Positions 1 through 19,988 of a stretch of DNA of 51,553 nt are shown here, piece after piece. The notes beneath the pieces were generated by a model. It had not been told where the DNA came from. It made no database searches and worked only from the letters and a program-made list of their open reading frames with translations. The position numbers were made by a program, and so were the translations under genes. The stretch is from an uncultured Mycoplasmatota bacterium. Its GTDB lineage: Bacteria; Bacillota_I; Bacilli_A; RF39; UBA660. The stretch spans positions 1-51,553 of the forward strand of contig CANPIH010000001.1 of NCBI GenBank assembly GCA_947574085.1, in the 5' to 3' direction. Position 1 is the first letter of the stretch. Each line of letters opens with the position of its first letter.

Positions 1-205
1 AACTTTGTTCCTGTGATTCACTGCTTTGTTGTTCTGATTGTTGTTGTGTTTCTTGAGATTGTTCTTCGCTTTGTGAACTCTGCTCTTGTGATTCACTACT
101 TTGTTGTTCTGATTGTTGTTGTGTTTCTTGTGATTGCTCTTCACTTTGTGAACTTTGCTCTTGTAATTCACTACTTTGTTGTTCCGATTGTTGTTGTGTT
201 TTTTG
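1..205. repeat. 75-bp (25-codon) tandem repeat, about 2.7 copies, possibly continuing beyond the window
   Basis: The anchor gtgattcac recurs at 13, 88 and 163 (as gtaattcac in the third copy), giving an exact 75-nt period. Units are near-identical with a few substitutions. Confidence 0.85.
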
Positions 206-253
206 TTCAGAAGTATCTTGTATTATATCTTTTACATATTTCCAAAATTTCAT
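1..253 (-). CDS. 5' part of a gene for a Gln/Ser/Glu-rich tandem-repeat protein (runs off the left edge)
   Basis: Minus-strand ATG at 253..251. It reads MKFWKYVKDIIQDTSEQKTQQQSEQQSSELQEQSSQSEEQSQETQQQSEQQSSESQEQSSQSEEQSQ... and stays open to base 1. The + strand ORF 13..258 in the track is its antisense shadow. Confidence 0.6.
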   Translation of the reverse strand, partial: MKFWKYVKDIIQDTSEQKTQQQSEQQSSELQEQSSQSEEQSQETQQQSEQQSSESQEQSSQSEEQSQETQQQSEQQSSESQEQS

Positions 254-1127: not shown

Positions 1128-1155
1128 TTGATTTTTTTTGAAAAAATGATATAAT
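1128..1155 (+). promoter_or_regulatory. Sigma-A-type promoter for the LRR gene pair
   Basis: TTGATT (1128-1133), 16-nt spacer, TGATATAAT extended -10 (TATAAT at 1150-1155). RBS AAGGGGGA lies just before the ATG at 1184. Confidence 0.5.
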
Positions 1156-1183: not shown

Positions 1184-4100
1184 ATGGTAGAAGGTAATGC
1201 ATGGATTAAACTTGATAAAAATAAGACAATTAACCCTAATATTAAATCATTTGAATATGCTGAAAGAAAAGATATTACTGAAGTAAATATTCCTAATGGT
1301 GTAACTACTATTGGAGAAAGAGCTTTTGCAAAATGTACTAATTTAAAAAAATTAATTATTCCAGATAGTGTTACTACAATTGGAGCAAGTGCTTTTAGTG
1401 AATGCGAAAATTTAGAAGAAGTAGTTTTATCTAAAAATTTAAAAAAACTAAATTATAGAACATTTGCAGACTGTAAGCGACTTAAAAAAATTATCATTCC
1501 TGATGGTATAGAAGAACTAGATTGGGCAGTTTTTTCAGGATGCGAAAATCTTGAAGAAATTGTATTACCGAATAGCATTAAAGCACTAAATAAACAACTA
1601 TTTCTAAATTGTAAAAAATTAAAAGATATAATCCTCCCACAAAGTTTAGAAAGTTTACCAAATGAATGTTTTAAAGGTTGTAATAATTTAAACATTAATC
1701 TAAATGAAAAAATAAAAAAACTTGGAGATAGAACATTTGAAGATTGCTATAATTTATCTACTTTTCCAGAAAATGTAACAACATTTGGTAAAAATTGTTT
1801 TAGAAATTGTAGAAAATTAACAAAAGCAACTTTAAATACTGAAATAAAAGAATTATCTGATGGTATGTTTGATGGGTGTATTAATTTAAGTGAAATAAAC
1901 TATCAAAGTGATAATTCATTAAGAATTGGAGAAAGATGTTTTAGAAATTGCAAAAGTCTTAAAACTATTCCTAAATTTATTGCAAATTTTAATGAACGAG
2001 CTTTTGAAAATTGTACTGGTCTTACAAGCATAGATATAATAGATAATGTAGTTCCTTTTGCTTGTTTTAGAGGTTGCAAAAATATTAAAGAAATATTAAA
2101 TCAAGAAAAAATTTTAGCACTTTCTGGCTTTGCATTTTCAGGATGTGAAAATTTAGAAGAAATAGATATAATTTATCCTTCTGTTATTGCTGCAGAAGCA
2201 TTTAGTAATTGTAAAAAACTTACTAAAGTTAGATTAAATATGGGTGTTAGAAAAATTGAATCAAGAGCTTTTTATAATTGTAAAAAATTAGAAAATATAA
2301 ATTTGCCTGACACTATTGATATGATTGGTAAAGAATCTTTTAAAAATTGTCATTCTATTACTTGCATAACAATCCCTGCTAACCTTAAGTCTTTTGGAGA
2401 TGGAGCATTTTCTTATATGGACTCTCTTGAAAGAATAGAAGTATCTCCATATAACAAAACATTTATTACTCCTGATAATAAAATACTTATTCATCAAATG
2501 TATCAAAAATTAATGTTATATGCGAGTGGTTGTAAGGATAAATCATATTCCTTAAAAGATTATAATTTTGAACTTGATATGTTTAATCATGCACTTGTTA
2601 GACCAATTACAGGAATTGGTAAATATGCTTTTGCAGGTGCTAAATATCTTGAAGAATTAAATCTATGTTGTTGTACTGTCGATATTGAACATACTGCATT
2701 TTATGATTGTCCAAAACTTAAAACTTTGAAAATTCACCCTATTGCATTTTATACAACTGGAGGGTTTAATTTAAGAACTGATGGTAGATATTATTTTGAA
2801 GAGGCAGCAAAAACAAAACCTCAACTCCCATTTGAAACAGTTGAATTTTGTGAAAGTCCAAATGGAGAAGATAATTTAATTTGGATAAATCAAAATGCTC
2901 TACCTAAATTTAAGAATGTAACTAAAGTAATTTTACCTAAAGTTGGTAGTTATTTTATAGGAAATAATGCTTTCTATGATTGTCAAAAACTTGAAGAAGT
3001 TGAAATACCGAATAATGTTACAAGCATTGATAAATGTGCATTCCCTACTTCCACAAAATTAAAATTTGAAAATGGTTTACAACCAGAAGGATTAATAGAA
3101 TTAATACATAACGATCAATATATAGGTGATTATAAATTATATGTTTTAGAAGATGGAACTTATTATATAGAGCAAGATAGTAAAATTACGACATTATCAA
3201 AACAATACATTGATGAAGTATGTTCTCATTCAGAAGATATAAGAGATAATTCTATTCTATTTATAGATTTTATGAATGACTTATTAGAACACGATTTAGG
3301 TATTAAATTTTTATTTAATGGGATTTTATTTGCAAATATGAGTTTAGAAAATAGAAAGATTCTTTTTGATAACTTAAATAAAAATGATAAGTTTTTTATA
3401 AATGTTCTTAAAAATAGTGGGTTACTTGATAAAAAAGATAATAATACTGAATTGTTATTATCTAAAACAAACTTTCAATTAGTGATTGATTTTATTAAAG
3501 TGTTAAGAAAATACAATATTGAACATCCATTATTGCATAATAAATTTTTAATAGCTAATTACGATTTAAAAAGTTTAGAACGAATAATAAATCTTGATTT
3601 ACCATTATTAATTAAAACACTAGAAGATAGTAAATTATTTGATAATGATTTTATAACACTAGTCGGAAATGGGCATGAAGATACAAGAGAAAGTTATTAT
3701 TTAACTTATGAAATATTAAAAAATAATGTATTAGAAAAATTTATCAGATTAGCTAAAAAATATAATATTAAAGATAAATATTTATTTGAAAAACCATTTA
3801 TATCAATAGCAGATAATCCGTTAACAGAACAATTATTTAAAATTTATGATGCAAACACTAAAAGATTATTAAAATCAAGTTTAGCAACTGAAACAAATGT
3901 TGGATCAAAGGTTAATTTAAGTGATTTAATGATATTAATGAAAATTACTGGTGCATTAGAAGAAAATCCAATTATAAGACAACGAGCAAGTACATTTATA
4001 GTTGAAAAACTTTTTGAAGAAAAACTTCCTAACGGAGAAAATAATGAGTATAGAATTGTTGGAAACGATATTCATAGAATTTTTGATTTCTATGATTTAA

Positions 4101-5032
4101 GGGGCGAATTTGATGAAGAATTTGCACAATTCTTTTTAGAGAATTATCAAGAATTAATAAAAGAAGAAAAACAAAAATCAGGTTTTATTCAAAGAGTTTA
4201 TTTAAACTTTAGGGAAATATCAAGAACTTCCACTTCAAATAAAGGATCTCAAAGACATTTAAAAGTTACTATTGATAAATGTAAGAACTTTTTATCTAAT
4301 GTTAAGTTTGATGGTGTAACCGAAGAAAATAAAGATTTTGCAGAATTAATTGGTGCTTGGTATGATACTAATACTGCTTGGATTAATGCACAAATAATTC
4401 ATAAAGAATCATTGAAAGCCCCTAGAAATATCTTTACTGAAGAAACTATTGATGAAGAAGGAAATATTATATATGATAATGATCCATCAAAGGATTTAAG
4501 AGAAGATATTAACCCAGACTTTTCTTATGAGTGGTTACCAAAACAAAATTATGATAATTTAATATTAGGAAAATATTGTAGTTGTTGTGCTCATATAGAA
4601 GGTGCTGGTCAAGGTATTATGAGGGCAAGTATGATTCTTGATTGTTGTCAAAATCTTGTTATCAGAAATAATTTAGGTCAAATCATTGCTAAATCAACTA
4701 TATTTGTTAATAAAGAAAAAGGATATGCAGTTTTTAATAATGTAGAAACATCACTAAATTATAGAGATAAAATAGAACTTGGAAAGATTTATGAGGCATT
4801 TTTAAGAGGTACTAATGCTTTTGTAGTTGCATATAATGAAAATCACAAAGGCACTCCACTACACAATATTTCTATTGGAGCAAATAGAAATACAATTTTA
4901 GATTATTTAACAGATGCTAAACATCCAGTTGTTGATGTACAACAAGCATTACAATATGGATCTTATTCTCTTAGTGGAAGTGGATATAGTGGAGATTGGA
5001 CAAGTAAACAAAGATTAGTGTTAAAAAGATAA
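1184..5032 (+). CDS. Giant BspA/TpLRR-type leucine-rich-repeat protein with an unassigned conserved C-terminal Cys-motif module
   Basis: The N-terminal ~620 aa are built from repeating units of the type IP.GVTTIGERAFAKCTNLKKLIIPDSVTTIGASAFSECENLEEV. The C-terminal ~330 aa are shared with the next gene (SQRHLKVTIDKC, YEWLPKQ.YDNLILGKYCSCCAH, GIMRASMIL, CQNLVIRN). No signal peptide. Confidence 0.8.
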   Translation: MVEGNAWIKLDKNKTINPNIKSFEYAERKDITEVNIPNGVTTIGERAFAKCTNLKKLIIPDSVTTIGASAFSECENLEEVVLSKNLKKLNYRTFADCKRLKKIIIPDGIEELDWAVFSGCENLEEIVLPNSIKALNKQLFLNCKKLKDIILPQSLESLPNECFKGCNNLNINLNEKIKKLGDRTFEDCYNLSTFPENVTTFGKNCFRNCRKLTKATLNTEIKELSDGMFDGCINLSEINYQSDNSLRIGERCFRNCKSLKTIPKFIANFNERAFENCTGLTSIDIIDNVVPFACFRGCKNIKEILNQEKILALSGFAFSGCENLEEIDIIYPSVIAAEAFSNCKKLTKVRLNMGVRKIESRAFYNCKKLENINLPDTIDMIGKESFKNCHSITCITIPANLKSFGDGAFSYMDSLERIEVSPYNKTFITPDNKILIHQMYQKLMLYASGCKDKSYSLKDYNFELDMFNHALVRPITGIGKYAFAGAKYLEELNLCCCTVDIEHTAFYDCPKLKTLKIHPIAFYTTGGFNLRTDGRYYFEEAAKTKPQLPFETVEFCESPNGEDNLIWINQNALPKFKNVTKVILPKVGSYFIGNNAFYDCQKLEEVEIPNNVTSIDKCAFPTSTKLKFENGLQPEGLIELIHNDQYIGDYKLYVLEDGTYYIEQDSKITTLSKQYIDEVCSHSEDIRDNSILFIDFMNDLLEHDLGIKFLFNGILFANMSLENRKILFDNLNKNDKFFINVLKNSGLLDKKDNNTELLLSKTNFQLVIDFIKVLRKYNIEHPLLHNKFLIANYDLKSLERIINLDLPLLIKTLEDSKLFDNDFITLVGNGHEDTRESYYLTYEILKNNVLEKFIRLAKKYNIKDKYLFEKPFISIADNPLTEQLFKIYDANTKRLLKSSLATETNVGSKVNLSDLMILMKITGALEENPIIRQRASTFIVEKLFEEKLPNGENNEYRIVGNDIHRIFDFYDLRGEFDEEFAQFFLENYQELIKEEKQKSGFIQRVYLNFREISRTSTSNKGSQRHLKVTIDKCKNFLSNVKFDGVTEENKDFAELIGAWYDTNTAWINAQIIHKESLKAPRNIFTEETIDEEGNIIYDNDPSKDLREDINPDFSYEWLPKQNYDNLILGKYCSCCAHIEGAGQGIMRASMILDCCQNLVIRNNLGQIIAKSTIFVNKEKGYAVFNNVETSLNYRDKIELGKIYEAFLRGTNAFVVAYNENHKGTPLHNISIGANRNTILDYLTDAKHPVVDVQQALQYGSYSLSGSGYSGDWTSKQRLVLKR

Positions 5033-5044
5033 GGGGGGTGTAGA

Positions 5045-8020
5045 ATGAATAATACATATAGTAAAGAATCAAAGGTCATTATTATTCCAGATGGAACGAA
5101 ACAAATAAGTGATGAAACATTTATGGATTTTAATAATCTTGAAGAAGTAATAATTCCAGATTCAGTTGAGCATATAGGAAAAGCTGCATTTAAAGGATGC
5201 AGTTCTCTAAAAAAGGTAAGATTATCAAATAACTTACATTTATTAGAGGATTTTGCTTTTAGTGAGTGTGAAAGTTTAGAAGAAATAGATATTCCAAAAT
5301 CATTGCATTATTATTCTTATGGAGTATTTAGTCATTGTCCTAATTTAAAGAAAATAAATGGACATAATGAAATAGATTTTATAGATGATTTAGCATTTTT
5401 CGGTTGTAAAAGTCTAACTGATTTTCATATAGCAGATAATACAACTAGCATTGGTAAAATGGCTCTATATTGTTGTGAATCTATAAAAGAAATACACATT
5501 CCAAAAAGTGTAGAATTGATAGAATATGGTGCTTTATCACTAATGTCATCATTAGAAAAAATCACAGTAGATTCCGAAAACTCTAAATATTTTACTGAAG
5601 ATGATGATACAGTTCTTTTATCAAAAGATGGAATGATAATACAATATGCAATAAATTGTGATCGTGATGAATTTATTGTTGGATACTATATTGAATCATT
5701 TGGTAATACTGTTGATGAAAATGGTAATACAATTCCTTTAGAAAGTAATGCACTAATATACAATATTGCAGATTATGCTTTTGCAGGTGCTAAAAAATTA
5801 AAGAAATTATATTTAGCATCTGAAGTTGAAGGTATAGGAGGTAAATCATTTCTTGGATGTGATAATCTAAAAGATTTAGAAATATTCCATTCAAGTTATG
5901 GAGATGCCTTATCATTGCATATTCATAAACCATTTAATGAAGAAGCAGAAATTCCATTTGAAAACATTACTATTGATGATGGAATAAAAACATTATGTGG
6001 TAAATTATCAGACTTATTTAAAAATGCTAAAACCATTACTCTACCCTCTACATTAGAGCATATAGGGGAAGATATTTTCTTAAAATCCAAATATTTAAAA
6101 TATTTAAAAATACCTGAAAATATTAAAATGATTAGTCCCAATACATTTAATCCTGGAATAGAACTAGAATTTCCTACATTCGGAGTGTTAAATAGCAACT
6201 TGTTCAATATGTTGCAAACAAAAACTAGCGAGGATTATTATATTAGTCATCATGATAGAGGAAATATTAGAATATTTTCATTAAAAGATGGAACATATTA
6301 TGTTAAAATTGATGATTATGATACAGTAAAAGTAAATAGAGATGAAATAATAAACCTTTCTAATAGTTCAAGTATTATGGCTGATAAACCTGATGACTTT
6401 ATAATGTATATAATACATCTATTAAGTATTAATGTTGAAAGCAGTAGAATTTTAACAAGTATATGGACTGATCCAAAGTTAGAAGAACTTTTTAATAAAT
6501 TTGTGAATGACTGTGATTATGTAAAGGAAATTGCAGAGAAAAAAACATCAAGAACAATTAGAGAAATATTAGACCATAGTGGTATATATGATGAATTTTT
6601 ATTTACTGGAATGATAATGAGAAAGATCAGTAAAGAAGAAATGGTTAAAGTAATATCAAATTATAATGATTCAATAAATAGATTTTTTAGATTATCCCCT
6701 ATTGATACTGATGATGAAGTTGTCATTAATGTTGATAGTTTGATTAGATATTGTAATCTATTAGAGAAGTATCAACGATACGATAAATTTCTTTATAATC
6801 CAGTATTTATTAATCGCTTAAGCTATCAAAATCAAGAATTATTGGTTAAATATTTTAATAAAAACATCAAACGCCTACTTATAAGTAGTAAAACTTTAGA
6901 TGATAAATATGGCGAAAATCTTAATGATTTATTAAAATTATGTAATTCACTAGGTATATTTTGCAATGAAGAAAGATTAAGTCAAAGAATGAGTACCTTC
7001 CTAAACGAAAAAGTTTTTAACGAAGAAGATTCTACCCATGTTTTAGGAAATGATATACACTCTATGTTTGGCGAAATTAAACCTCGTGATGAGGTAGATT
7101 ATGAATTTGTACTATTCTTTGTAGAAAATTATGAAAAACTTGTAAAATTAGAGAAACAAAAATCTGGTATTATTGCAAGAATATATAATGCTTTTAGAGA
7201 TATTTCAAAGACATCTACATCACATAGAGGATCTCAAAGACATTTAAAAGTTACTATTGATAAATGTTTAGATTACTTTTTAGCAGAAAGATTTGAAGGT
7301 GTAACTGAAGAAAATAAAGATTTAGCACAATTATTACAAAAATATTATTCTGAATCTTATGCTTTAAGCATAGGAGAAATGATTACAAAACAAAGCCAAA
7401 ATGCCCCTAGAAATATTTTTACTAAAATTGTATATGATGAAAATGAAGATCCAATTTATTCTTATGATAGTAGTGAAGATTTAGTAGAACATAATATAGA
7501 TGATTTTTCATACGAATGGCTACCAAAACAAGATTATGATAATTTAATATTAGGAAAATATTGTAGTTGCTGTGCTCATTTACTGGGTGCAGGTGCAGGT
7601 ATCATGAGAGCAAGTATGATTTTAAACAACTGTCAAAATCTTGTTATAAGAAATACAAATAATGAAATAATTGCTAAAATGACTATTTATGTAAACAAAG
7701 AAGAAGGTTATGCAGTTTTCAATACTACTGAAATAAATGCAATCTATCGTGATGCTGATAGTTTAGATAAAATATATAAGGCATTTTTAAGAGGTACTAA
7801 AGCATTTGTAGAAAGATATAATGAAAATAATGATATTCCTATAACAATTGTTTCTATTGGAGAATATAGAAATATATTAAAAGAACATTTAGGAGATATA
7901 GAAACTAAACTTTTATCTACTCCAAATTATTCTTGCTATGGTTATTATGCAGGAGATAAAAGTGTTGGTACTTATGATGGAGATTGTAAAAATAAGCAAA
8001 TATTAGTGTTAAAAAAATAA
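5045..8020 (+). CDS. Paralogous BspA-type LRR protein with the same C-terminal module
   Basis: RBS AAGGGGGG lies 13 nt after the upstream stop. LRR units such as IPDSVEHIGKAAFKGCSSLKKV. The C-terminal module is clearly alignable to ORF 1184..5032, including 40 identical nt (7228-7267 vs 4243-4282). Confidence 0.8.
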   Translation: MNNTYSKESKVIIIPDGTKQISDETFMDFNNLEEVIIPDSVEHIGKAAFKGCSSLKKVRLSNNLHLLEDFAFSECESLEEIDIPKSLHYYSYGVFSHCPNLKKINGHNEIDFIDDLAFFGCKSLTDFHIADNTTSIGKMALYCCESIKEIHIPKSVELIEYGALSLMSSLEKITVDSENSKYFTEDDDTVLLSKDGMIIQYAINCDRDEFIVGYYIESFGNTVDENGNTIPLESNALIYNIADYAFAGAKKLKKLYLASEVEGIGGKSFLGCDNLKDLEIFHSSYGDALSLHIHKPFNEEAEIPFENITIDDGIKTLCGKLSDLFKNAKTITLPSTLEHIGEDIFLKSKYLKYLKIPENIKMISPNTFNPGIELEFPTFGVLNSNLFNMLQTKTSEDYYISHHDRGNIRIFSLKDGTYYVKIDDYDTVKVNRDEIINLSNSSSIMADKPDDFIMYIIHLLSINVESSRILTSIWTDPKLEELFNKFVNDCDYVKEIAEKKTSRTIREILDHSGIYDEFLFTGMIMRKISKEEMVKVISNYNDSINRFFRLSPIDTDDEVVINVDSLIRYCNLLEKYQRYDKFLYNPVFINRLSYQNQELLVKYFNKNIKRLLISSKTLDDKYGENLNDLLKLCNSLGIFCNEERLSQRMSTFLNEKVFNEEDSTHVLGNDIHSMFGEIKPRDEVDYEFVLFFVENYEKLVKLEKQKSGIIARIYNAFRDISKTSTSHRGSQRHLKVTIDKCLDYFLAERFEGVTEENKDLAQLLQKYYSESYALSIGEMITKQSQNAPRNIFTKIVYDENEDPIYSYDSSEDLVEHNIDDFSYEWLPKQDYDNLILGKYCSCCAHLLGAGAGIMRASMILNNCQNLVIRNTNNEIIAKMTIYVNKEEGYAVFNTTEINAIYRDADSLDKIYKAFLRGTKAFVERYNENNDIPITIVSIGEYRNILKEHLGDIETKLLSTPNYSCYGYYAGDKSVGTYDGDCKNKQILVLKK

Positions 8021-8046
8021 AAGAAATCATTATTTGAGATTTCTTT
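8020..8046. terminator. Hairpin between convergent genes, followed by a T-rich tract on the + strand
   Basis: aaagaaatc (8020-8028) pairs with gatttcttt (8038-8046) across a 9-nt loop, and ttgttt follows. It overlaps the 3' end of the minus-strand gene. Confidence 0.5.
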
Positions 8047-8734
8047 TTGTTTCCGTTGAAAAATCTAGCACTAATTTTTCAAAATCAATTTCTTTTTTAA
8101 ATCTAGTTATTTCAGGAATTAGAATATCAGCAAATGGATGATTAGGCATATTTTTTTCCATTTCTGGTATTATCCCAATTAGCATATAATCAAAACCATT
8201 ATGATATGTTTTAAAGTCATCTCTTTCACGACCAGGATGATTCATTATAGTTGATTTTGATATTATTTGTTTAATTTCAGGATGTTCCAACTTATAATAT
8301 GTTTCCTTTTCTATTTTTAACATAGAAAATAAATCATAAACCCAAACTTTTTGTCCCTCTTTTACCTCCAACCACGAATTAAAATCTAAATGTTCTACAC
8401 CATACATAAAAAACGGAATATTCCTAGTTGAATCAGTATCTCCATGAACAATCTGATATTCTTTGTCTTCCATAGTATGTGTTAATAATTCAGCTTTATT
8501 AGCTATATTGTTAAAGGTTGTTGGCTCATAAAACATATAAATTAATGCAGAATAATAAGCATAATATAATTTTCTTAATCTAGTTAATGTCGTTTGATCA
8601 AATTCTACAATTTTTCCAGCAGCAACTGCTTTATTATATATATCTAATTTATCTTTGTCTTGAGATATATTATGGTGGAATACTGTTTCTCCACTCAATT
8701 TAATTGATCCATATAAATCTTTTCTATCTATCAC
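8030..8734 (-). CDS. Hypothetical protein
   Basis: Intact 234-aa ORF convergent with the LRR pair. No recognisable motifs, signal peptide or TM segment. Confidence 0.5.
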   Translation of the reverse strand: MIDRKDLYGSIKLSGETVFHHNISQDKDKLDIYNKAVAAGKIVEFDQTTLTRLRKLYYAYYSALIYMFYEPTTFNNIANKAELLTHTMEDKEYQIVHGDTDSTRNIPFFMYGVEHLDFNSWLEVKEGQKVWVYDLFSMLKIEKETYYKLEHPEIKQIISKSTIMNHPGRERDDFKTYHNGFDYMLIGIIPEMEKNMPNHPFADILIPEITRFKKEIDFEKLVLDFSTETKRNLK

Positions 8735-8821: not shown

Positions 8822-9556
8822 TTATCTTTCTATTTCATCATAAAATTCATCATCAAAATCCCATAGATTTTCTATTGGATTTTTTAATTTATACAAATTA
8901 CTTTCAATAGCATTTTTAAAATACCCATACTTATTATTTATTGAATTACCATCTTCATCTTTAAATTTTCTATCTAATACTCTTGGAATAATATAATGAA
9001 CTATTTGTACTAAATCTTTATATGAATTACCTTCTTCCAATAATTGTTCAAATAATTTATCATAGTAAAATATTTGTGTATCATTTTCATTTATATATTT
9101 TCTATCAACTAATTCTAGTGTTAGTATATTATGTTCTTCAGGAACGAAAAAAGATGATATTTTGGTTTTATCATCTTTATCTATTTGTTTATTAGTATTT
9201 ATTATATTAGTATTTATTTGTGTGTCCTTTTCCACATCTCCTAAGTCCATATCTCCCTTTTGGGTATTTGGTGTTTCATATATCAAATATTCATATTCAA
9301 ATTGACCAAATTCATTTTGTTTTTTCTCTATAACTAAATAGTCATTTTGTTGTAATTCTTGCAAAATATTTCTAATTGCTTTAACACCCTCTTTGCTTAT
9401 TGATACTAATCCATTTATTGAATAATCCCAATCTTCTGGTAAAGATAGCATAAAAGATAATAAACCTTTTGCTTTATATGATAAATTTTTATCTCTTAAA
9501 TGGTAATTAGACATAACTGTATAATTACTATTTTTTTCTATTGTAAATTTTGCCAT
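8822..9556 (-). CDS. Replication-initiator / replisome-organiser-like winged-HTH protein (plasmid/phage type)
   Basis: The N-terminus MAKFTIEKNSNYTVMSNYHLRDKNLSYKAKGLLSFMLSLPEDWDYSINGL matches the pattern I know from Firmicute plasmid/phage Rep and DnaD-like HTH proteins. Start moved to the ATG at 9556, which has RBS AAAGGAGAG 6 nt upstream. Confidence 0.6.
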   Translation of the reverse strand: MAKFTIEKNSNYTVMSNYHLRDKNLSYKAKGLLSFMLSLPEDWDYSINGLVSISKEGVKAIRNILQELQQNDYLVIEKKQNEFGQFEYEYLIYETPNTQKGDMDLGDVEKDTQINTNIINTNKQIDKDDKTKISSFFVPEEHNILTLELVDRKYINENDTQIFYYDKLFEQLLEEGNSYKDLVQIVHYIIPRVLDRKFKDEDGNSINNKYGYFKNAIESNLYKLKNPIENLWDFDDEFYDEIER

Positions 9557-9585
9557 TATATACTCTCCTTTCATATATAAAAAAA

Positions 9586-9601
9586 CAGACTATTAAGTCT
9601 G
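9586..9601 (-). terminator. Short hairpin plus T-run just upstream of the rep-like start (terminator- or attenuator-like)
   Basis: On the minus strand CAGACT-TAAT-AGTCTG is followed by TTTTTTT. It lies between the dac stub and the rep RBS. Confidence 0.4.
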
Positions 9602-9705
9602 CTATCTATTAAAAGGTGTAACTATATTTAAACTAACTTCATAAGAAACTGTATAATTACTATGGCATATATTCGTTGTATTTCTTACATATTCTTGGTT
9701 AATGA

Positions 9706-9876
9706 CTATGTAGTCATAATATTACTTATACTTGCAATTAAATGTTCATCGTAAGCGCTTTTCTCAAACAGAACTCGATTCGTATCCATATCTATTGCAA
9801 CCATATTTCGTGCTGAAATAGCATTTACTTTAATTGGAAACAACAAAAGCAAAAACAAAAAGAACAATTTTTTCAT
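9706..9876 (-). pseudogene. 5' remnant of a serine-type D-Ala-D-Ala carboxypeptidase (PBP5/DacB-like) gene
   Basis: Hand translation gives MKKLFFLFLLLLFPIKVNAISARNMVAIDMDTNRVLFEKSAYDEHLIASISNIMTT*. This is a signal peptide plus the conserved dac N-terminus (compare ..IDa.sGrvLyeKn......IASITKIMT). The SxxK lysine is Asn (AAT) and a TAG follows 5 codons later. RBS AGGTGA lies upstream. Too short for the ORF track. Confidence 0.6.
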
Positions 9877-9980
9877 ACATTTCACCTAAAAAATTGTATG
9901 AAAAAAAGGACAACTTTAGTCCTTTAGATCAAAAATGTTTACCATGAAATCTTCTTTCTAGACAAATATATAAATATCTA

Positions 9981-10526
9981 TTAATCGTTTGTATAATTAT
10001 AGATTCCATGTATTTTTTCTAAACTTTCCGTACTTACTGGGTTAAGTACCCATTTTCCCTCTTTTTTAACGACTTTAAAGTCAATAGTATATTCTATTGT
10101 TGTAGTATTTTTTTGCATCTGCTCTAGTTTATAATTTAAAAATTTATCCTTATCATAATTTCCATTGTTATCAATAAATTCTTGACGATTATTATTTTTA
10201 TATTCTTCTGTTTCTTTTTGAACTTTATACAAATCATAAACTGTTATTTTAGTTGTTACTATTGCTTCTTCACCATTGTAACTTTCTGAAGAAATTTTAT
10301 AACTTAGATCTTTATATTGTTTATTCATAACCTCTTTGTACCTTTTGCTTTGCTCCTCATTTAAATTTTCTTCTTTTGTGATGTTTTCAAGCTCTGTAAG
10401 TATTTTCTCATCTCGATTATTATACTTATTCAAATATTCCTTTACGGCATCGCTTGCACTTGATTTACTACAAGCACATCCTACTACCATACTTAAAGTA
10501 ATTAAAAATACAATTATTTTTTTCAT
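9981..10526 (-). CDS. Lipoprotein, function unknown
   Basis: MKKIIVFLITLSMVVGCAC has a signal peptide with a lipobox-like VVGC. Confidence 0.65.
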   Translation of the reverse strand: MKKIIVFLITLSMVVGCACSKSSASDAVKEYLNKYNNRDEKILTELENITKEENLNEEQSKRYKEVMNKQYKDLSYKISSESYNGEEAIVTTKITVYDLYKVQKETEEYKNNNRQEFIDNNGNYDKDKFLNYKLEQMQKNTTTIEYTIDFKVVKKEGKWVLNPVSTESLEKIHGIYNYTND

Positions 10527-13429: not shown

Positions 13430-14551
13430 TTAGTTCTCATTATCCTCATTTACTTTCTGTATTAATATTCTATCGTATATTTGTCTTCCATTAATAAGTC
13501 CTCTATGTCTTTGCGTTGGTATGGTTCTTAACTTTTCAACCTCTGGTGTCATATCCCCAGAATGTGTATGTCCAATAATTCTAAATTGTCTTGGACTATG
13601 AAATTTAAGAAATGTTATTGGAACTCCCATAACCTTGTTATAATCAGATGGAATAGCATCATATCTAGGAACTTCTAGTGCATCATAATTATCAAACTTC
13701 GGATATGTATTTAGACCATAATCTTTTTCTAATTTTTTTATTAATGGTTTGTTATATCGTAAATTATCTTGCATAGTCATCAAACTAAGAGTTGTATGTC
13801 GCCTTTTTAAATCAATATTAGTGAACCAACAAATATTGCCCATACTACGCCATTTTTGTCCTTTTTCATCTATCCAAAATCTCGTTTCTCTTGGTTCTAA
13901 ATCTTTTGGTACCTTAAACGCCATATCTCCAGCATTTTTGCCTAACTACATAATTTCGTCTCTAACAAGTGGAAATGTTTCCTTTGTAGTAGCATCATTC
14001 TCATTACCAATTATTATAAATTGCTTTTTTGCTTCTATTAACCACGAAAGAAATTCTCTAAATAATGAAAATGGTGGATTTGTTATTATAATGTCTGATT
14101 CATTTCTTAATTTTTTTACTTCATCAGATCTAAAATCGCCATCGCCTTCAAGATAATCCCATTCCAAATCATATATATCAATTCTTCCAGATTTATTTGT
14201 GTCTCTATCTAAAGTAAATAGTTTTCCATGGGAATTGGTTTTGGTTTTATCATATTTTGAACTTTCCTGCTCAAATAATGATAATTGTTCAAATACTGCA
14301 GTTTTTTTATCGTTAGCATAACTTGTACTTATTAATTTTTTTAAACCAAGTAATAAAAAGTTTTGAGCAAAATATCTTGTAAAATTACTCCATTCTGGGT
14401 CATCACAAGGTAGTAAAACTGTCTTATTTCTAAAAACCTCTGGATTATATTCCAAATAAGCATTCATTTCTCTTTCTATATCTGAATATTCTGTATAAAA
14501 TTCATCATCTTTTTCTTTTTTTGCCCTTTTTAAGCTTTCATTATTTGCCAT
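13430..14551 (-). pseudogene. N6-adenine DNA methyltransferase (EcoRI-methylase-like family) interrupted by one in-frame TAG
   Basis: ORFs 13946..14551 and 13430..13924 are in the same frame, separated by TAG plus 7 sense codons (..VRDEIM*LGKNAGDMAFKVP..). Motifs seen: DEFYTEYSDIE, ITNPPFSLFREF, ICWFTN. No restriction endonuclease gene is nearby. Confidence 0.7.
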
Positions 14552-17683: not shown

Positions 17684-19873
17684 TTAATCGTCATCCCCAA
17701 AAAAATCATCAAAAAATTCATCATCGGTAATAATTGCATCATCTACAATTACACTATCTACATCAATATTAATTTTGGGTTGATCTGGAAGTTTATCTTT
17801 TTTTTCTTTTTTGGGTTGCCTTTTTATAGATGTTTTCTCAGTATTTATTTCCTCTACCTTTGGAATAGCAGAGTTTTGTTTTCTTACTTCTTCTTTTTGC
17901 GTATTTTCCATTACTTCTTTTTTAGGTAATGATTCCATTTCTTTCTTCTGTCTTGCTTCTTCTTCGTCTAATTCTTTTAGTTTTTTATCAATATCTGCAA
18001 TCATACGGTCAATTTCTTCATTAGACGTAGGAGCATTTTTTAAAAAAGGATTTGGAAGTCCCATTCCAGGAAAAGCATTCATAGTAGGCATTCCACTTGG
18101 TTCTATAAAATTAGGCATTCCCATGGCTAAATTTTCTTTATTTTTATCTAAATTTTCAAGCATTGCTTTTCTTTTTTCTTCTGAAACGTATTTTTTAATA
18201 TCAAACAAAGCTATTGCCATTTCTTTTCTAGTAGGCAATTCGGCTTTCTGACGATTAATTCCCCAGTCCATTTTAAAATCTGGTTCTAACTTAGTTTTAA
18301 ATGGATATTTTCTCAAGCGCATAATTATAGCTTCAAATAATTTTAATTTCTGCAAATCTGTCACTGTAACTAATGGAGTGGATGCAGTTTTATCTTTTTC
18401 TTTAGATTTCACATCTCCACACATTTTACTAATTTCTTCTAAAGCAGCCATTTCGGTACTGATCAAATACACCCAATTACCACAATTTCCTTTTATTACT
18501 TCCGCTACTTCTTTTCCATATACATCATTTAATTGAGCAAAATTTTGAATAATAAAAGTAAATCTAATATCACGACTTCGAGCTGCTGAAACCATACTAT
18601 CGACATCCTTTAAAGGAGGCATATTAGCAAATTCATCTAAAATAAAATTAGTACGAAAAGGAAGTTTTCCACCAGTTTCTTTTGCTACGTCTATTAAAGT
18701 TTCATAGCATTGTTTAATAAAAATAGTAAGTAAACTATGATAAGTCGTTTTTTCATCATGAATAATCATAAATACTGCTGTTTTTTCTTTCCCAATATCG
18801 CGCATATTGAAATCACTATGAGAAAGCATTTCACTTAATTTTTCACGGGAAGCAAAAATACGTATTTTTTGTCTAAAAGTAGAAGTAATACCACCTTGCG
18901 TATCTTTCGGAGCATTAATGGTATTTGAAGCAAATATGTATGGACTAGAAGCCTCTCCTTTTAGCAAAAAATATTCCTTAATATAAGTACTTGTAGCAAA
19001 TCTCTCTTCCCCAATACTGCTCATAAAATTGATAGAATTTAAATTAATTTCCTCTTCTTTGGCATCCATAAATAATCCGAGTGCAAGGCCAGAAAAATAA
19101 TCCGCTGCACTATTTTCCCAAAATGGTTCACTTTTATTATTTGGATCGCGAATAATATTTAAACCAACGTCATCCAAAAGCTCAGTAGATTTATCTATAT
19201 TTCCATCTTTATAGTAACGATAAGGCAAAGTTAAAGGATTCCAAGCATTTCCTCTTTGTGGGTCTCTAAAATTCAAAACAATAATTTTATATCCCTGTTT
19301 TTTTAAATAATCCGCACTATATTCATAAATCTCACCTTTAGGATCCGTAATAATCATACTTTCACCCTTTTTAGCAAGTAAATTTACCATTGGTTTTACC
19401 AAACATTCGGTTTTACCAGATCCAGTAGACCCAATAACCAAATTGTGATATTCTCCATTATCAACCCATATATCCTTACCATTATTGATAAGAGGCATCC
19501 CAGCAGCACTAACTTTACGAGCGGTTGGAAGAACATGTTCAATATTTTTATCTTCTTTAATTTCTTTATCTCTACTCCATCTAGAGTATCCCTTCTCTTC
19601 TTTTTCTTTTATGTTAAGACCAAATCCATGTTTTTCACGATCAAAAATATAAGAGGATACAGATGTAAAAATAATAATAAGAGCAATAAAAAACATTAGC
19701 ATGGTAAGAACTAAATTATCCCCTACGAAGGCTGGAAAAGGATTCAAGCCATAAAATTCACCATCATTAAAAAAGGAAGTAAAATTAAGTACTGCTATAG
19801 CACACAAGTACAATAAAAATATACAAAATATGATAAACATTGTAAAATCTTTTGGGGTTACTCTAAATTTCAT
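17684..19873 (-). CDS. Type IV coupling protein (VirD4/TraG family) with a long low-complexity acidic C-terminal tail
   Basis: Two N-terminal TM segments. Walker A IGSTGSGKTE, TDPKGEI, Walker B ILDEFANMP, RSRDIRFTFIIQNFAQL. Start set at the ATG at 19873 (RBS GGAGGA). Confidence 0.9.
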   Translation of the reverse strand: MKFRVTPKDFTMFIIFCIFLLYLCAIAVLNFTSFFNDGEFYGLNPFPAFVGDNLVLTMLMFFIALIIIFTSVSSYIFDREKHGFGLNIKEKEEKGYSRWSRDKEIKEDKNIEHVLPTARKVSAAGMPLINNGKDIWVDNGEYHNLVIGSTGSGKTECLVKPMVNLLAKKGESMIITDPKGEIYEYSADYLKKQGYKIIVLNFRDPQRGNAWNPLTLPYRYYKDGNIDKSTELLDDVGLNIIRDPNNKSEPFWENSAADYFSGLALGLFMDAKEEEINLNSINFMSSIGEERFATSTYIKEYFLLKGEASSPYIFASNTINAPKDTQGGITSTFRQKIRIFASREKLSEMLSHSDFNMRDIGKEKTAVFMIIHDEKTTYHSLLTIFIKQCYETLIDVAKETGGKLPFRTNFILDEFANMPPLKDVDSMVSAARSRDIRFTFIIQNFAQLNDVYGKEVAEVIKGNCGNWVYLISTEMAALEEISKMCGDVKSKEKDKTASTPLVTVTDLQKLKLFEAIIMRLRKYPFKTKLEPDFKMDWGINRQKAELPTRKEMAIALFDIKKYVSEEKRKAMLENLDKNKENLAMGMPNFIEPSGMPTMNAFPGMGLPNPFLKNAPTSNEEIDRMIADIDKKLKELDEEEARQKKEMESLPKKEVMENTQKEEVRKQNSAIPKVEEINTEKTSIKRQPKKEKKDKLPDQPKINIDVDSVIVDDAIITDDEFFDDFFGDDD

Positions 19874-19988
19874 AATACATTCCTCCAACTTATATGTAAA
19901 ATAATTTGTTTTTAAATTTCCATTTTATTTTACTATATAATTTATTTTTTCGCAATTGAATTATTTTCATAAATGGCTTAAATTAAAA

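Follow-up and report, generated by a model that had tools for sequence, protein, structure and literature searches.

Gene content of the window

The window analysed here is the entire 51.5-kb contig CANPIH010000001.1 (51,553 nucleotides), which belongs to an 86%-complete, low-GC (25-30%) metagenome-assembled genome (MAG) of 1.36 Mb from an uncultured Mycoplasmatota bacterium, and its left part carries two adjacent genes, A and B, encoding large leucine-rich repeat (LRR) proteins with a common C-terminal module. The features of this gene pair, including the parts of each module predicted to resemble GCN5-related N-acetyltransferases (GNATs), are as follows.

1128..1155, + strand: promoter-like site TTGATT-16-(TG)-TATAAT upstream of A, 10/12 matches, extended -10
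1184..5032, + strand: open reading frame (ORF) A, A-type LRR protein of 1282 aa with BspA-type LRRs, a helical middle and the C-terminal module
3983..5029, + strand: module of A (P0001), 349 aa, with a helical subdomain (residues 1-145) and a predicted GNAT-fold domain (residues ~176-349, nt 4508-5029)
4577..4594, + strand: C-x-C-C-x-H loop of A (A residues 1132-1137), between predicted helices 195-198 and 210-218 of the module
5045..8020, + strand: ORF B, B-type LRR protein of 991 aa, member of the second deep clade
7010..8017, + strand: module of B (P0002), with the predicted GNAT-like part at about nt 7493-8017
7562-7579, + strand: C-x-C-C-x-H loop of B, with CCAH as B residues 842-845

An initial annotation, made from the letters of the window, had described two LRR paralogues of 1282 and 991 aa with a shared plan, and this description held. 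LRR_5 and LRR_8 were the sole domains found by a Pfam scan in the N-terminal parts of A and B, the E values for LRR_5 (PF13306) of 4.4e-106 in A and 5.5e-49 in B identifying bona fide LRR_5 repeats, and NCBIfam returned a match to HupY/LrrG at the level of the LRRs. The two proteins are 35% identical overall (BLASTP, E 1e-159) and 56% identical over their C-terminal ~340 aa (MAFFT), and all of the shared motif blocks quoted in that annotation are present in the alignment. Neither a signal peptide nor a transmembrane segment was found in A or B by hydropathy scanning (maximum 19-residue Kyte-Doolittle mean of 1.2-1.4, compared with 2.0 in a neighbouring lipoprotein), and no wall-anchor domain was found with Pfam, in agreement with the earlier statement that both lack an export signal. 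A ribosome-binding site (RBS), AAAGGGGGA, precedes the start codon ATG of A at 1184. Since the stop codon of A and the start codon of B are separated by 12 nt and a GGGGGG RBS precedes B, the two genes are probably co-transcribed.

Family and conservation of the C-terminal module

The last 336-349 aa of the two proteins gave no significant match in Pfam, NCBIfam, PHROGs, PADLOC or PDB sequences, permissive thresholds included; the PHROG search returned nothing better than E 0.019, the PDB search with a 16-sequence module profile found nothing, and no plasmid match for the module was obtained. Weak matches to RadC (E 0.005) and DUF6933 (E 0.05-0.08) in the helical subdomain were seen in only 1-2 of 16 members and were rejected as noise. 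Exhaustive phmmer searches identified homologues in 604 clusters at 50% identity (236 at E<1e-30), with the module at the C terminus in essentially all of them. When ten distant members were scanned, the N-terminal partner was LRR_5 in seven, and the other three were short proteins (336-512 aa) with no N-terminal domain match. Distant members of the family, with 35-41% module identity, were also observed in the Clostridia MAG loci L050, L060 and L070. The module represents a large family without a family model, the annotation of which goes no further than 'LRR domain-containing protein', and nearly all of its members come from uncultured gut Bacilli and Clostridia, often in multiple copies per genome.

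Alignment of 264 homologues gave the consensus LGKyCxCCaHxxGaGxGIMrASmi...cQNLVIrn..g.IiaK.T.yvN...gY.vfN..E, the near-invariant motif of which reads in full C-x-C-C-x-H-x-x-G-x-G. Within it, C199, C201, C202 and H204 (P0001 numbering) are 97-100% conserved, and the CC doublet was invariant in both alignments made. The initial annotation had called the module unassigned and highly conserved and had made the lack of conservation of its Cys/His positions a ground for refutation; on both counts its view is borne out, the domain being real and under strong constraint. Its statement that the module is much better conserved than the remainder applies to the comparison between the paralogues (56% as against 35% overall) and does not extend to orthologues, where identity is 46-75% in the LRR part and 52-74% in the module. 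The LRR parts are accordingly not hypervariable, being only modestly less conserved among orthologues than the module.

Structure prediction and fold comparison

A model of the module was generated with AlphaFold2 on a 53-sequence alignment, with a predicted local distance difference test score (pLDDT) of 93.7 and a predicted template modelling score (pTM) of 0.90. In this model residues 1-145 are helical and residues ~176-349 run, in order, β-α-α-β-β-β-α-β-α-β, which is the GNAT order β1-α1-α2-β2-β3-β4-α3-β5-α4-β6. The top 50 Foldseek matches in the PDB were all GNAT acetyltransferases, including SpeG, Gcn5/PCAF, PaiA, RimL and NatD, with E values of 6e-4 to 3e-3 and target-normalised template modelling (TM) scores of 0.30-0.59. 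In the viral library BFVD an uncharacterised protein of a phage ranked first (317 columns, E 5e-11), followed by GNATs, which dominate the matches. The CxCCxH motif is predicted to sit between helices 195-198 and 210-218, at the positions of GNAT α1 and α2, and conserved polar residues (N252, E255, N303 and D338) fall on the β4- and β5-position strands. The α1-α2 loop of GNATs lines the acceptor site, and to our knowledge the CxCCxH loop has no counterpart among known GNAT enzymes. As a family the module is undescribed, its GNAT-like fold being known and its conserved Cys loop new. The initial annotation had proposed an enzyme-like domain delivered by a variable LRR targeting region; the first part of this proposal fits the predicted GNAT-like fold, and the second does not agree with LRRs that are not especially variable among orthologues.

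A homologue outside the LRR proteins was identified by tblastn in the Microcystis (cyano)phage MaMV-DC.

L081 1528-3621, + strand: MaMV-DC ORF68L, 697 aa, with the CCxH..GAG core near residues 489-562, no LRRs and no Pfam or PHROG match

ORF68L keeps CCxH..GAG and was aligned with the module by hhalign with a probability of 95% (E 3e-8 over a 74-column core). As ORF68L is a real homologue, phages also carry the core domain, in their case without LRRs.

The initial annotation had named PcfJ-like families of mobile elements as a lead, and the possibility that the module is a divergent PcfJ-like domain (PF14284) was examined with a set of 11 genuine PcfJ domains collected from further genomes in the class. 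Several BFVD models named PcfJ-like were among the weaker Foldseek matches (E 4e-3 to 7e-3, TM score 0.08-0.42), and by eye PcfJ (helix, H-C motif, helix, then three strands) is patterned similarly to the module, although we know of no solved PcfJ structure. Every sequence test was nevertheless negative: PF14284 matched neither module even at E<=10, it was absent from the whole MAG while the same search did recover it in other genomes of the class, and hhalign of the module profile with the 11 PcfJ domains, whether local, relaxed or global, gave a probability of 0.2-0.3%. Membership of the PcfJ family was therefore rejected (no HMM match, PF14284 absent from the MAG, hhalign probability <1%). 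Weak echoes are left at the level of the fold, and a divergent PcfJ-like domain is a highly improbable reading.

Evolutionary history of the A/B pair

B-type (~990 aa) and A-type (~1270 aa) genes share contigs in many metagenomes, and orthologue lengths fall into two ranges of 1200-1310 aa (A-type) and 960-1015 aa (B-type). A tree of 58 modules consists of two deep clades, A-type and B-type, that are drawn from largely the same genomes, so the duplication is old and the pair has been co-inherited. Recent duplication and concerted evolution, the former of which had been offered in the initial annotation together with gene conversion and constraint as a cause of the nucleotide identity between the genes, were rejected by this tree.

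The identity itself was confirmed exactly: positions 4243-4282 and 7228-7267 agree at 40 of 40 nt, and the second near-identical stretch noted at the Cys block is a run of 37 identical nt at 4548-4584 over the YDNLILGKYCSCC codons, within which the CSCC codons fall. Most genomes encode KGSQRKLKVT in A and RGSQRHLKVT in B, whereas A of the window and of its closest relatives (L012, L013 and L015) has the B-like His; at this site A and B are identical at 38-41 of 42 nt in the window, L012 and L013 and at 35 of 42 nt in L015. The 40-nt identity is best explained as a short B-to-A gene-conversion patch, so that local gene conversion is retained from the earlier set of explanations for this patch only.

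A seven-gene island around the pair

Three genes adjoining the pair are present, in whole or in part, in the window.

2..253, - strand: first 84 codons of gene X (von Willebrand factor A (vWA)-like), including an acidic S/Q/E-rich repeat; the gene continues past the left contig end
269..1057, - strand: orf269, 262 aa, divergent from A, with two internal ~125-aa repeats and a GGAGG RBS
8030..8734, - strand: orf8030, 234 aa, convergent with B and free of Cys; homologues after B in 21/69 genome loci

Homologues of orf269 adjoin LRR genes in 25 of the 69 genome loci, among which no conservation of trpS and the other right-hand genes beside the pair was seen. ORF listing of the long loci identified three further conserved genes downstream of orf269, namely X, an ATPase of the AAA_5 type and an ankyrin (Ank) protein, which gives the order Ank <- AAA_5 ATPase <- vWA-like X <- orf269 / A -> B / <- orf8030 over ~13-14 kb, orf269 being the first gene of an orf269-X-AAA-Ank operon. 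Every A/B-clade locus whose upstream flank reaches 4.7 kb or more contains X, AAA_5 and Ank (18/18), as do three further metagenome contigs. In the window the X ORF starts 16 nt past the orf269 stop, its start MKFWKYVKD..SEQQ with the ensuing repeats matches the X N terminus in L019 (MRFWKFIKD..), and the contig ends inside X, breaking within the repeat before the AAA_5 gene; because the contig ends inside the cluster, no larger conserved gene cluster figured in the initial annotation. The acidic repeat of X breaks many independent assemblies at one and the same site, as observed at window positions 2-253 (- strand) and at the ends of L012, L013, L020, L022-L024 and L046.

In the long loci the X proteins have 585-780 aa with a long acidic S/Q/E repeat at the N terminus, and X homologues span 386-771 aa, a difference due mainly to repeat length. 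The C-terminal domain of X is highly conserved and contains a FYFDMSGSMSxYTN motif like that of a metal ion-dependent adhesion site (MIDAS), together with CVVFxDFDP, and no Pfam domain, VWA included, was detected in X. The ATPase (~596 aa) matches Pfam AAA_5 with E 1e-10 and has an invariant Walker A GPPGAGKT and Walker B DE; against solved AAA+ structures its sequence gave marginal matches to ClpB, HslU and Lon and its profile gave none, so that it is assigned to AAA_5 in general and not specifically to the MoxR clade. The ankyrin protein (~240 aa) matches Ank_2 with E 6e-22. Each of the repeats of orf269 has the pattern P(L)xPGxM.G..HYGF...YPTQ..I.A.G...G..K.FE.GK, which is kept across 14 homologues, and no match to orf269 was found in Pfam, NCBIfam, PHROG, PADLOC or the PDB. 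The AlphaFold2 model of orf8030 (pLDDT 91.6) gave a best Foldseek E value of 0.18 against the PDB, with weak echoes of papain-like proteins, arylamine N-acetyltransferases and ubiquitin C-terminal hydrolases; the papain-like echo cannot be catalytic because orf8030 has no Cys. Profiles of orf269 and orf8030 had no match in the PDB. A polymorphic toxin with its immunity gene was considered for the pair and its neighbours and rejected because the C-terminal module is the best-conserved part; orf269 and orf8030 lie on the opposite strand.

Accessory and mobile context

Homologues of the module were found in 45 of 251 genomes of the order and in none of the three other genomes of the same genus (0/3). 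The flanks of the island differ between genomes, and the island stands at different chromosomal sites; on the three further contigs the flanking genes are rnhB/ylqF versus rplS/trmD, a glycosyltransferase island with IS110, and helix-turn-helix (HTH) and PemK genes. On two of the three contigs the island copy is decayed. The first (L084) has an A-type gene internally deleted to 336 aa (8988-9998, + strand), in which ~280 aa of LRR lead directly into the final ~55 aa of the module, and has transposase, methylase and RhuM fragments in place of orf8030. In the second (L087 5060-13660) the island is decaying in a glycosyltransferase/O-antigen region, with X cut to 288 aa, two small ORFs (64 and 71 aa) at the orf269 and A-type positions, and IS110 and Transposase_mut genes on the flanks.

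To the right of the island in the window, two features were located.

8822..9574, - strand: Rep-like/DnaD-like HTH_36 gene (Pfam HTH_36 E 4e-6; PHROG replication-initiation families down to E 1e-20)
9706..9876, - strand: truncated dac-like ORF of 56 codons with a signal-peptide-like start followed by ASISNIMTT

The Rep-like gene follows orf8030 in 7 related loci. The ASISNIMTT of the second ORF resembles the SxxK region of PBP5 with its lysine replaced, and the ORF looks like the truncated start of a PBP5/DacB-type D-Ala-D-Ala carboxypeptidase gene; this stub probably marks the right junction of the inserted island. The mobile context proposed in the initial annotation is thus upheld by the varied chromosomal sites, the Rep-like gene in 7 loci and the truncated dac-like ORF at the right edge. 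Further to the right, an EcoRI-type adenine methyltransferase gene at 13430-14551 (- strand) is split into two ORFs (PF13651 positions 2-186 and 199-344) and is probably a frameshifted pseudogene. A type IV secretion system (T4SS) coupling protein (T4SS-DNA_transf, TraG-D_C) at 17684-19888 (- strand) heads a long single-strand gene array that extends to ~43 kb, and the housekeeping genes trpS, uppP and rmuC stand between the LRR island and the T4SS region.

These surroundings bear on two alternative functions. The island could be a conflict system, directed against phages or mobile genetic elements and centred on a MoxR-vWA pair, in which the LRRs would sense an invader protein, the Cys-loop domain would be the effector (acting, for example, on tRNA, translation or a phage protein), the AAA+/vWA pair would gate activation and orf269 and orf8030 would be regulators or antidotes. 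The patchy distribution (45/251 order genomes, 0/3 same-genus others), the varied sites amid IS110, transposase fragments, RhuM, a methylase fragment, a PemK toxin and Rep-like genes, and the homologous core domains in phages would all suit such a role, and a conflict role has been put forward for ternary MoxR-vWA systems whose effectors vary (PMC7159879), yet those described are enriched in multicellular bacteria and not in reduced gut Bacilli (PMC7159879), and no VMAP or iSTAND component was recognised in the island. Among the PADLOC-DB 2.0 models, none matched A, B, X, orf269 or orf8030, and the AAA and Ank proteins gave partial, domain-level matches only; moreover, the LRRs are not hypervariable among orthologues, and a distant clade has the module without the AAA_5, X and Ank genes. 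A conflict function is on this evidence unlikely. The bolder version, that the seven genes are a new MoxR-vWA-gated immune or conflict system with the signal-less LRRs as intracellular receptors and the Cys-loop domain as a new effector chemistry released or activated by the ATPase/vWA pair, is more doubtful again.

Alternatively, A and B might be exported by a non-classical route, for example by the T4SS-type machine 10-35 kb downstream, as adhesins or as effectors in host or microbe interaction, the module then acting in the target cell as the LRR-NEL effectors IpaH and SspH do (NEL, novel E3 ligase). The T4SS coupling protein at 17684-19888 would provide for this, BspA-type LRR_5 repeats are typical of surface and host-interaction proteins (as is reflected in the HupY/LrrG match at the LRR level), and an LRR region joined to a Cys enzyme is the architecture of NEL effectors. 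Export is nonetheless very unlikely, given that signal peptide, transmembrane segment and wall anchor are all missing from both proteins, that trpS, uppP and rmuC separate the island from the T4SS region, that the islands of other genomes lie in unrelated contexts with no T4SS nearby, and that neither a NEL nor another known effector domain was found.

Proposed function

The reading we prefer overall, to which a probability of about one half is given, is that A and B are a pair of LRR-targeted, Cys-dependent, transferase-like enzymes, possibly served by a chaperone trio of the MoxR/vWA type. Both proteins appear cytoplasmic and form an ancient, co-inherited pair, each with a bipartite module composed of a helical part and a predicted divergent GNAT fold. 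The LRR solenoid would bind a specific macromolecular target, most likely a protein, and present it to the GNAT-like domain, which would act as a transferase or another group-modifying enzyme. The CC(x)H loop may provide a thiol nucleophile with a His base (acyl-enzyme, ping-pong) or form a metal site, and would work with N252, E255, G299 and N303 on the strands at the β4/β5 positions as well as Y284, N285 and D338. The module lacks the usual pyrophosphate loop for acetyl-CoA, so a donor other than acetyl-CoA could be used. On the basis of synteny, the most likely role of the AAA+/vWA/ankyrin trio is to remodel, activate or load the LRR enzymes or to govern their deployment, and the trio is most likely analogous to the MoxR-vWA pairs. 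For the latter a role as chaperone and co-chaperone is established (Kaur et al., 2020, PMC7159879), and capture of substrate peptides with ATP-driven release has been proposed (PMC7159879).

Several observations weigh against this assignment. At the level of the fold, the Foldseek scores are moderate with an rmsd of 6-7 Å; no GNAT family model (Pfam Acetyltransf_*, NCBIfam) matches the module even at E<=10, and no GNAT was returned by PDB sequence or profile searches with the module. The Q/R-x-x-G-x-G/A motif (β4-α3) is not conserved, the corresponding loop at P0001 257-262 having no conserved residue in 264 sequences and varying in length, and the helix at the α4 position is vestigial in the predicted structure; acyl-CoA use is therefore doubtful, and the module could be a pseudo-enzyme. 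The module is accordingly GNAT-like in its predicted fold, and an assignment to any acetyl-CoA-using GNAT family does not follow. In the motif itself C199 or H204 is missing from a few family members, the CC doublet from none. At the level of the island, a search of the window's own MAG, which is 86% complete, recovered neither the part of X that follows its first 84 codons nor the AAA_5 and Ank genes. The AAA/vWA/Ank trio also occurs without LRR genes (G372 and G387), and with A only in G396, while distant Clostridia-type loci lack the trio entirely and often have arrays of 3-6 module genes; the link between trio and LRR genes is consequently clade-specific. In L050, L060 and L070 up to 6 module-bearing genes were observed within 20 kb, with no trio, orf269 or orf8030.

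Part of the same evidence would suit a non-catalytic function, in which the module serves for binding or as a scaffold, being a pseudo-enzyme of GNAT-like fold whose zinc knuckle is structural, and A and B are adaptors in a complex with the ankyrin, vWA and AAA+ proteins. Such a domain could have lost the canonical acetyl-CoA loop motif and retained a vestigial α4-position helix, C-x-C-C-x-H resembles a compact metal-binding knuckle, and the other parts (LRR, Ank and vWA) are all protein-protein interaction modules. A scaffold would however leave the strong conservation over 604 clusters, including polar N252, E255, N303 and D338 at the strands of GNAT active sites, to be accounted for, and a pattern in which C199 or H204 is sometimes missing and CC never is more readily understood for a catalytic residue than for a structural site with four ligands. 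We regard this function as possible, if on balance doubtful.

The module may hold new chemistry, in that the CxCCxH loop is the most conserved element of a familiar fold from which the acetyl-CoA motif is missing. The combination of LRRs with an enzyme-like domain in reduced-genome gut bacteria suggests targeted protein modification, which by way of LRR-enzyme fusions is so far known mainly from secreted pathogen effectors. As the Cys-loop LRR family and the AAA+/vWA/ankyrin operon constitute one island in this clade, each has a testable partner, as client or effector.

Comparison with known systems

PcfJ-like proteins resemble the module in their ties to mobile elements and phages, in a Cys/His motif ahead of a three-stranded sheet and, weakly, in fold, and have no HMM or profile-profile similarity to it. 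BspA-type LRR surface proteins such as the HupY/LrrG adhesins have LRR_5 repeats in common with A and B, which differ from them in carrying no signal peptide, lipobox, wall anchor or transmembrane segment and in having a conserved enzyme-like C-terminal module instead.

The NEL E3 ligases IpaH, SspH and SlrP, and XopL, have LRRs for recognition at the N terminus, then helices, and finally a C-terminal domain in which a Cys is invariant. The overall architecture of A and B is like that of these LRR-plus-Cys-enzyme effectors, and one weak match to XopL was obtained at the LRR level. Unlike the all-helical NEL or the XL-box, however, the domain at the catalytic position of A and B is predicted to be α/β and GNAT-like, and unlike the effectors of proteobacterial pathogens, A and B come from reduced gut Bacilli and Clostridia, with no secretion signal or linkage to a secretion system found.

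With the MoxR-vWA pairs (RavA-ViaA, CbbQ-CbbO, NorQ-NorD and CoxD-CoxE) and the ternary systems built on them, the island as seen in related loci shares an AAA_5 ATPase, its Walker motifs intact, beside a protein with a MIDAS-like motif (DxSxS), together with further conserved partner genes. The ATPase of the island differs in its length of ~596 aa with a long C-terminal extension and in the lack of a profile match to solved AAA+ proteins, and the vWA protein in its long acidic disordered N terminus. The third components of the island are an ankyrin protein and the LRR/GNAT-like proteins, as compared with VMAP, iSTAND, FtsH or β-propeller proteins in the MoxR-vWA ternary systems (PMC7159879).

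The GNAT superfamily is like the module in the predicted order of strands and helices, in supplying its top structural matches and in the placement of conserved polar residues at the β4/β5-position strands, the site of GNAT active sites. Unlike GNATs, the module has no sequence-profile match, no conserved Q/RxxGxG/A loop and only a vestigial helix at the α4 position, and it is further distinguished by a unique and near-invariant insertion, CxCCxH..GxG, that separates the α1-position helix from the α2-position helix, by the obligatory helical subdomain of ~145 aa in front and by the N-terminal fusion to BspA-type LRRs.

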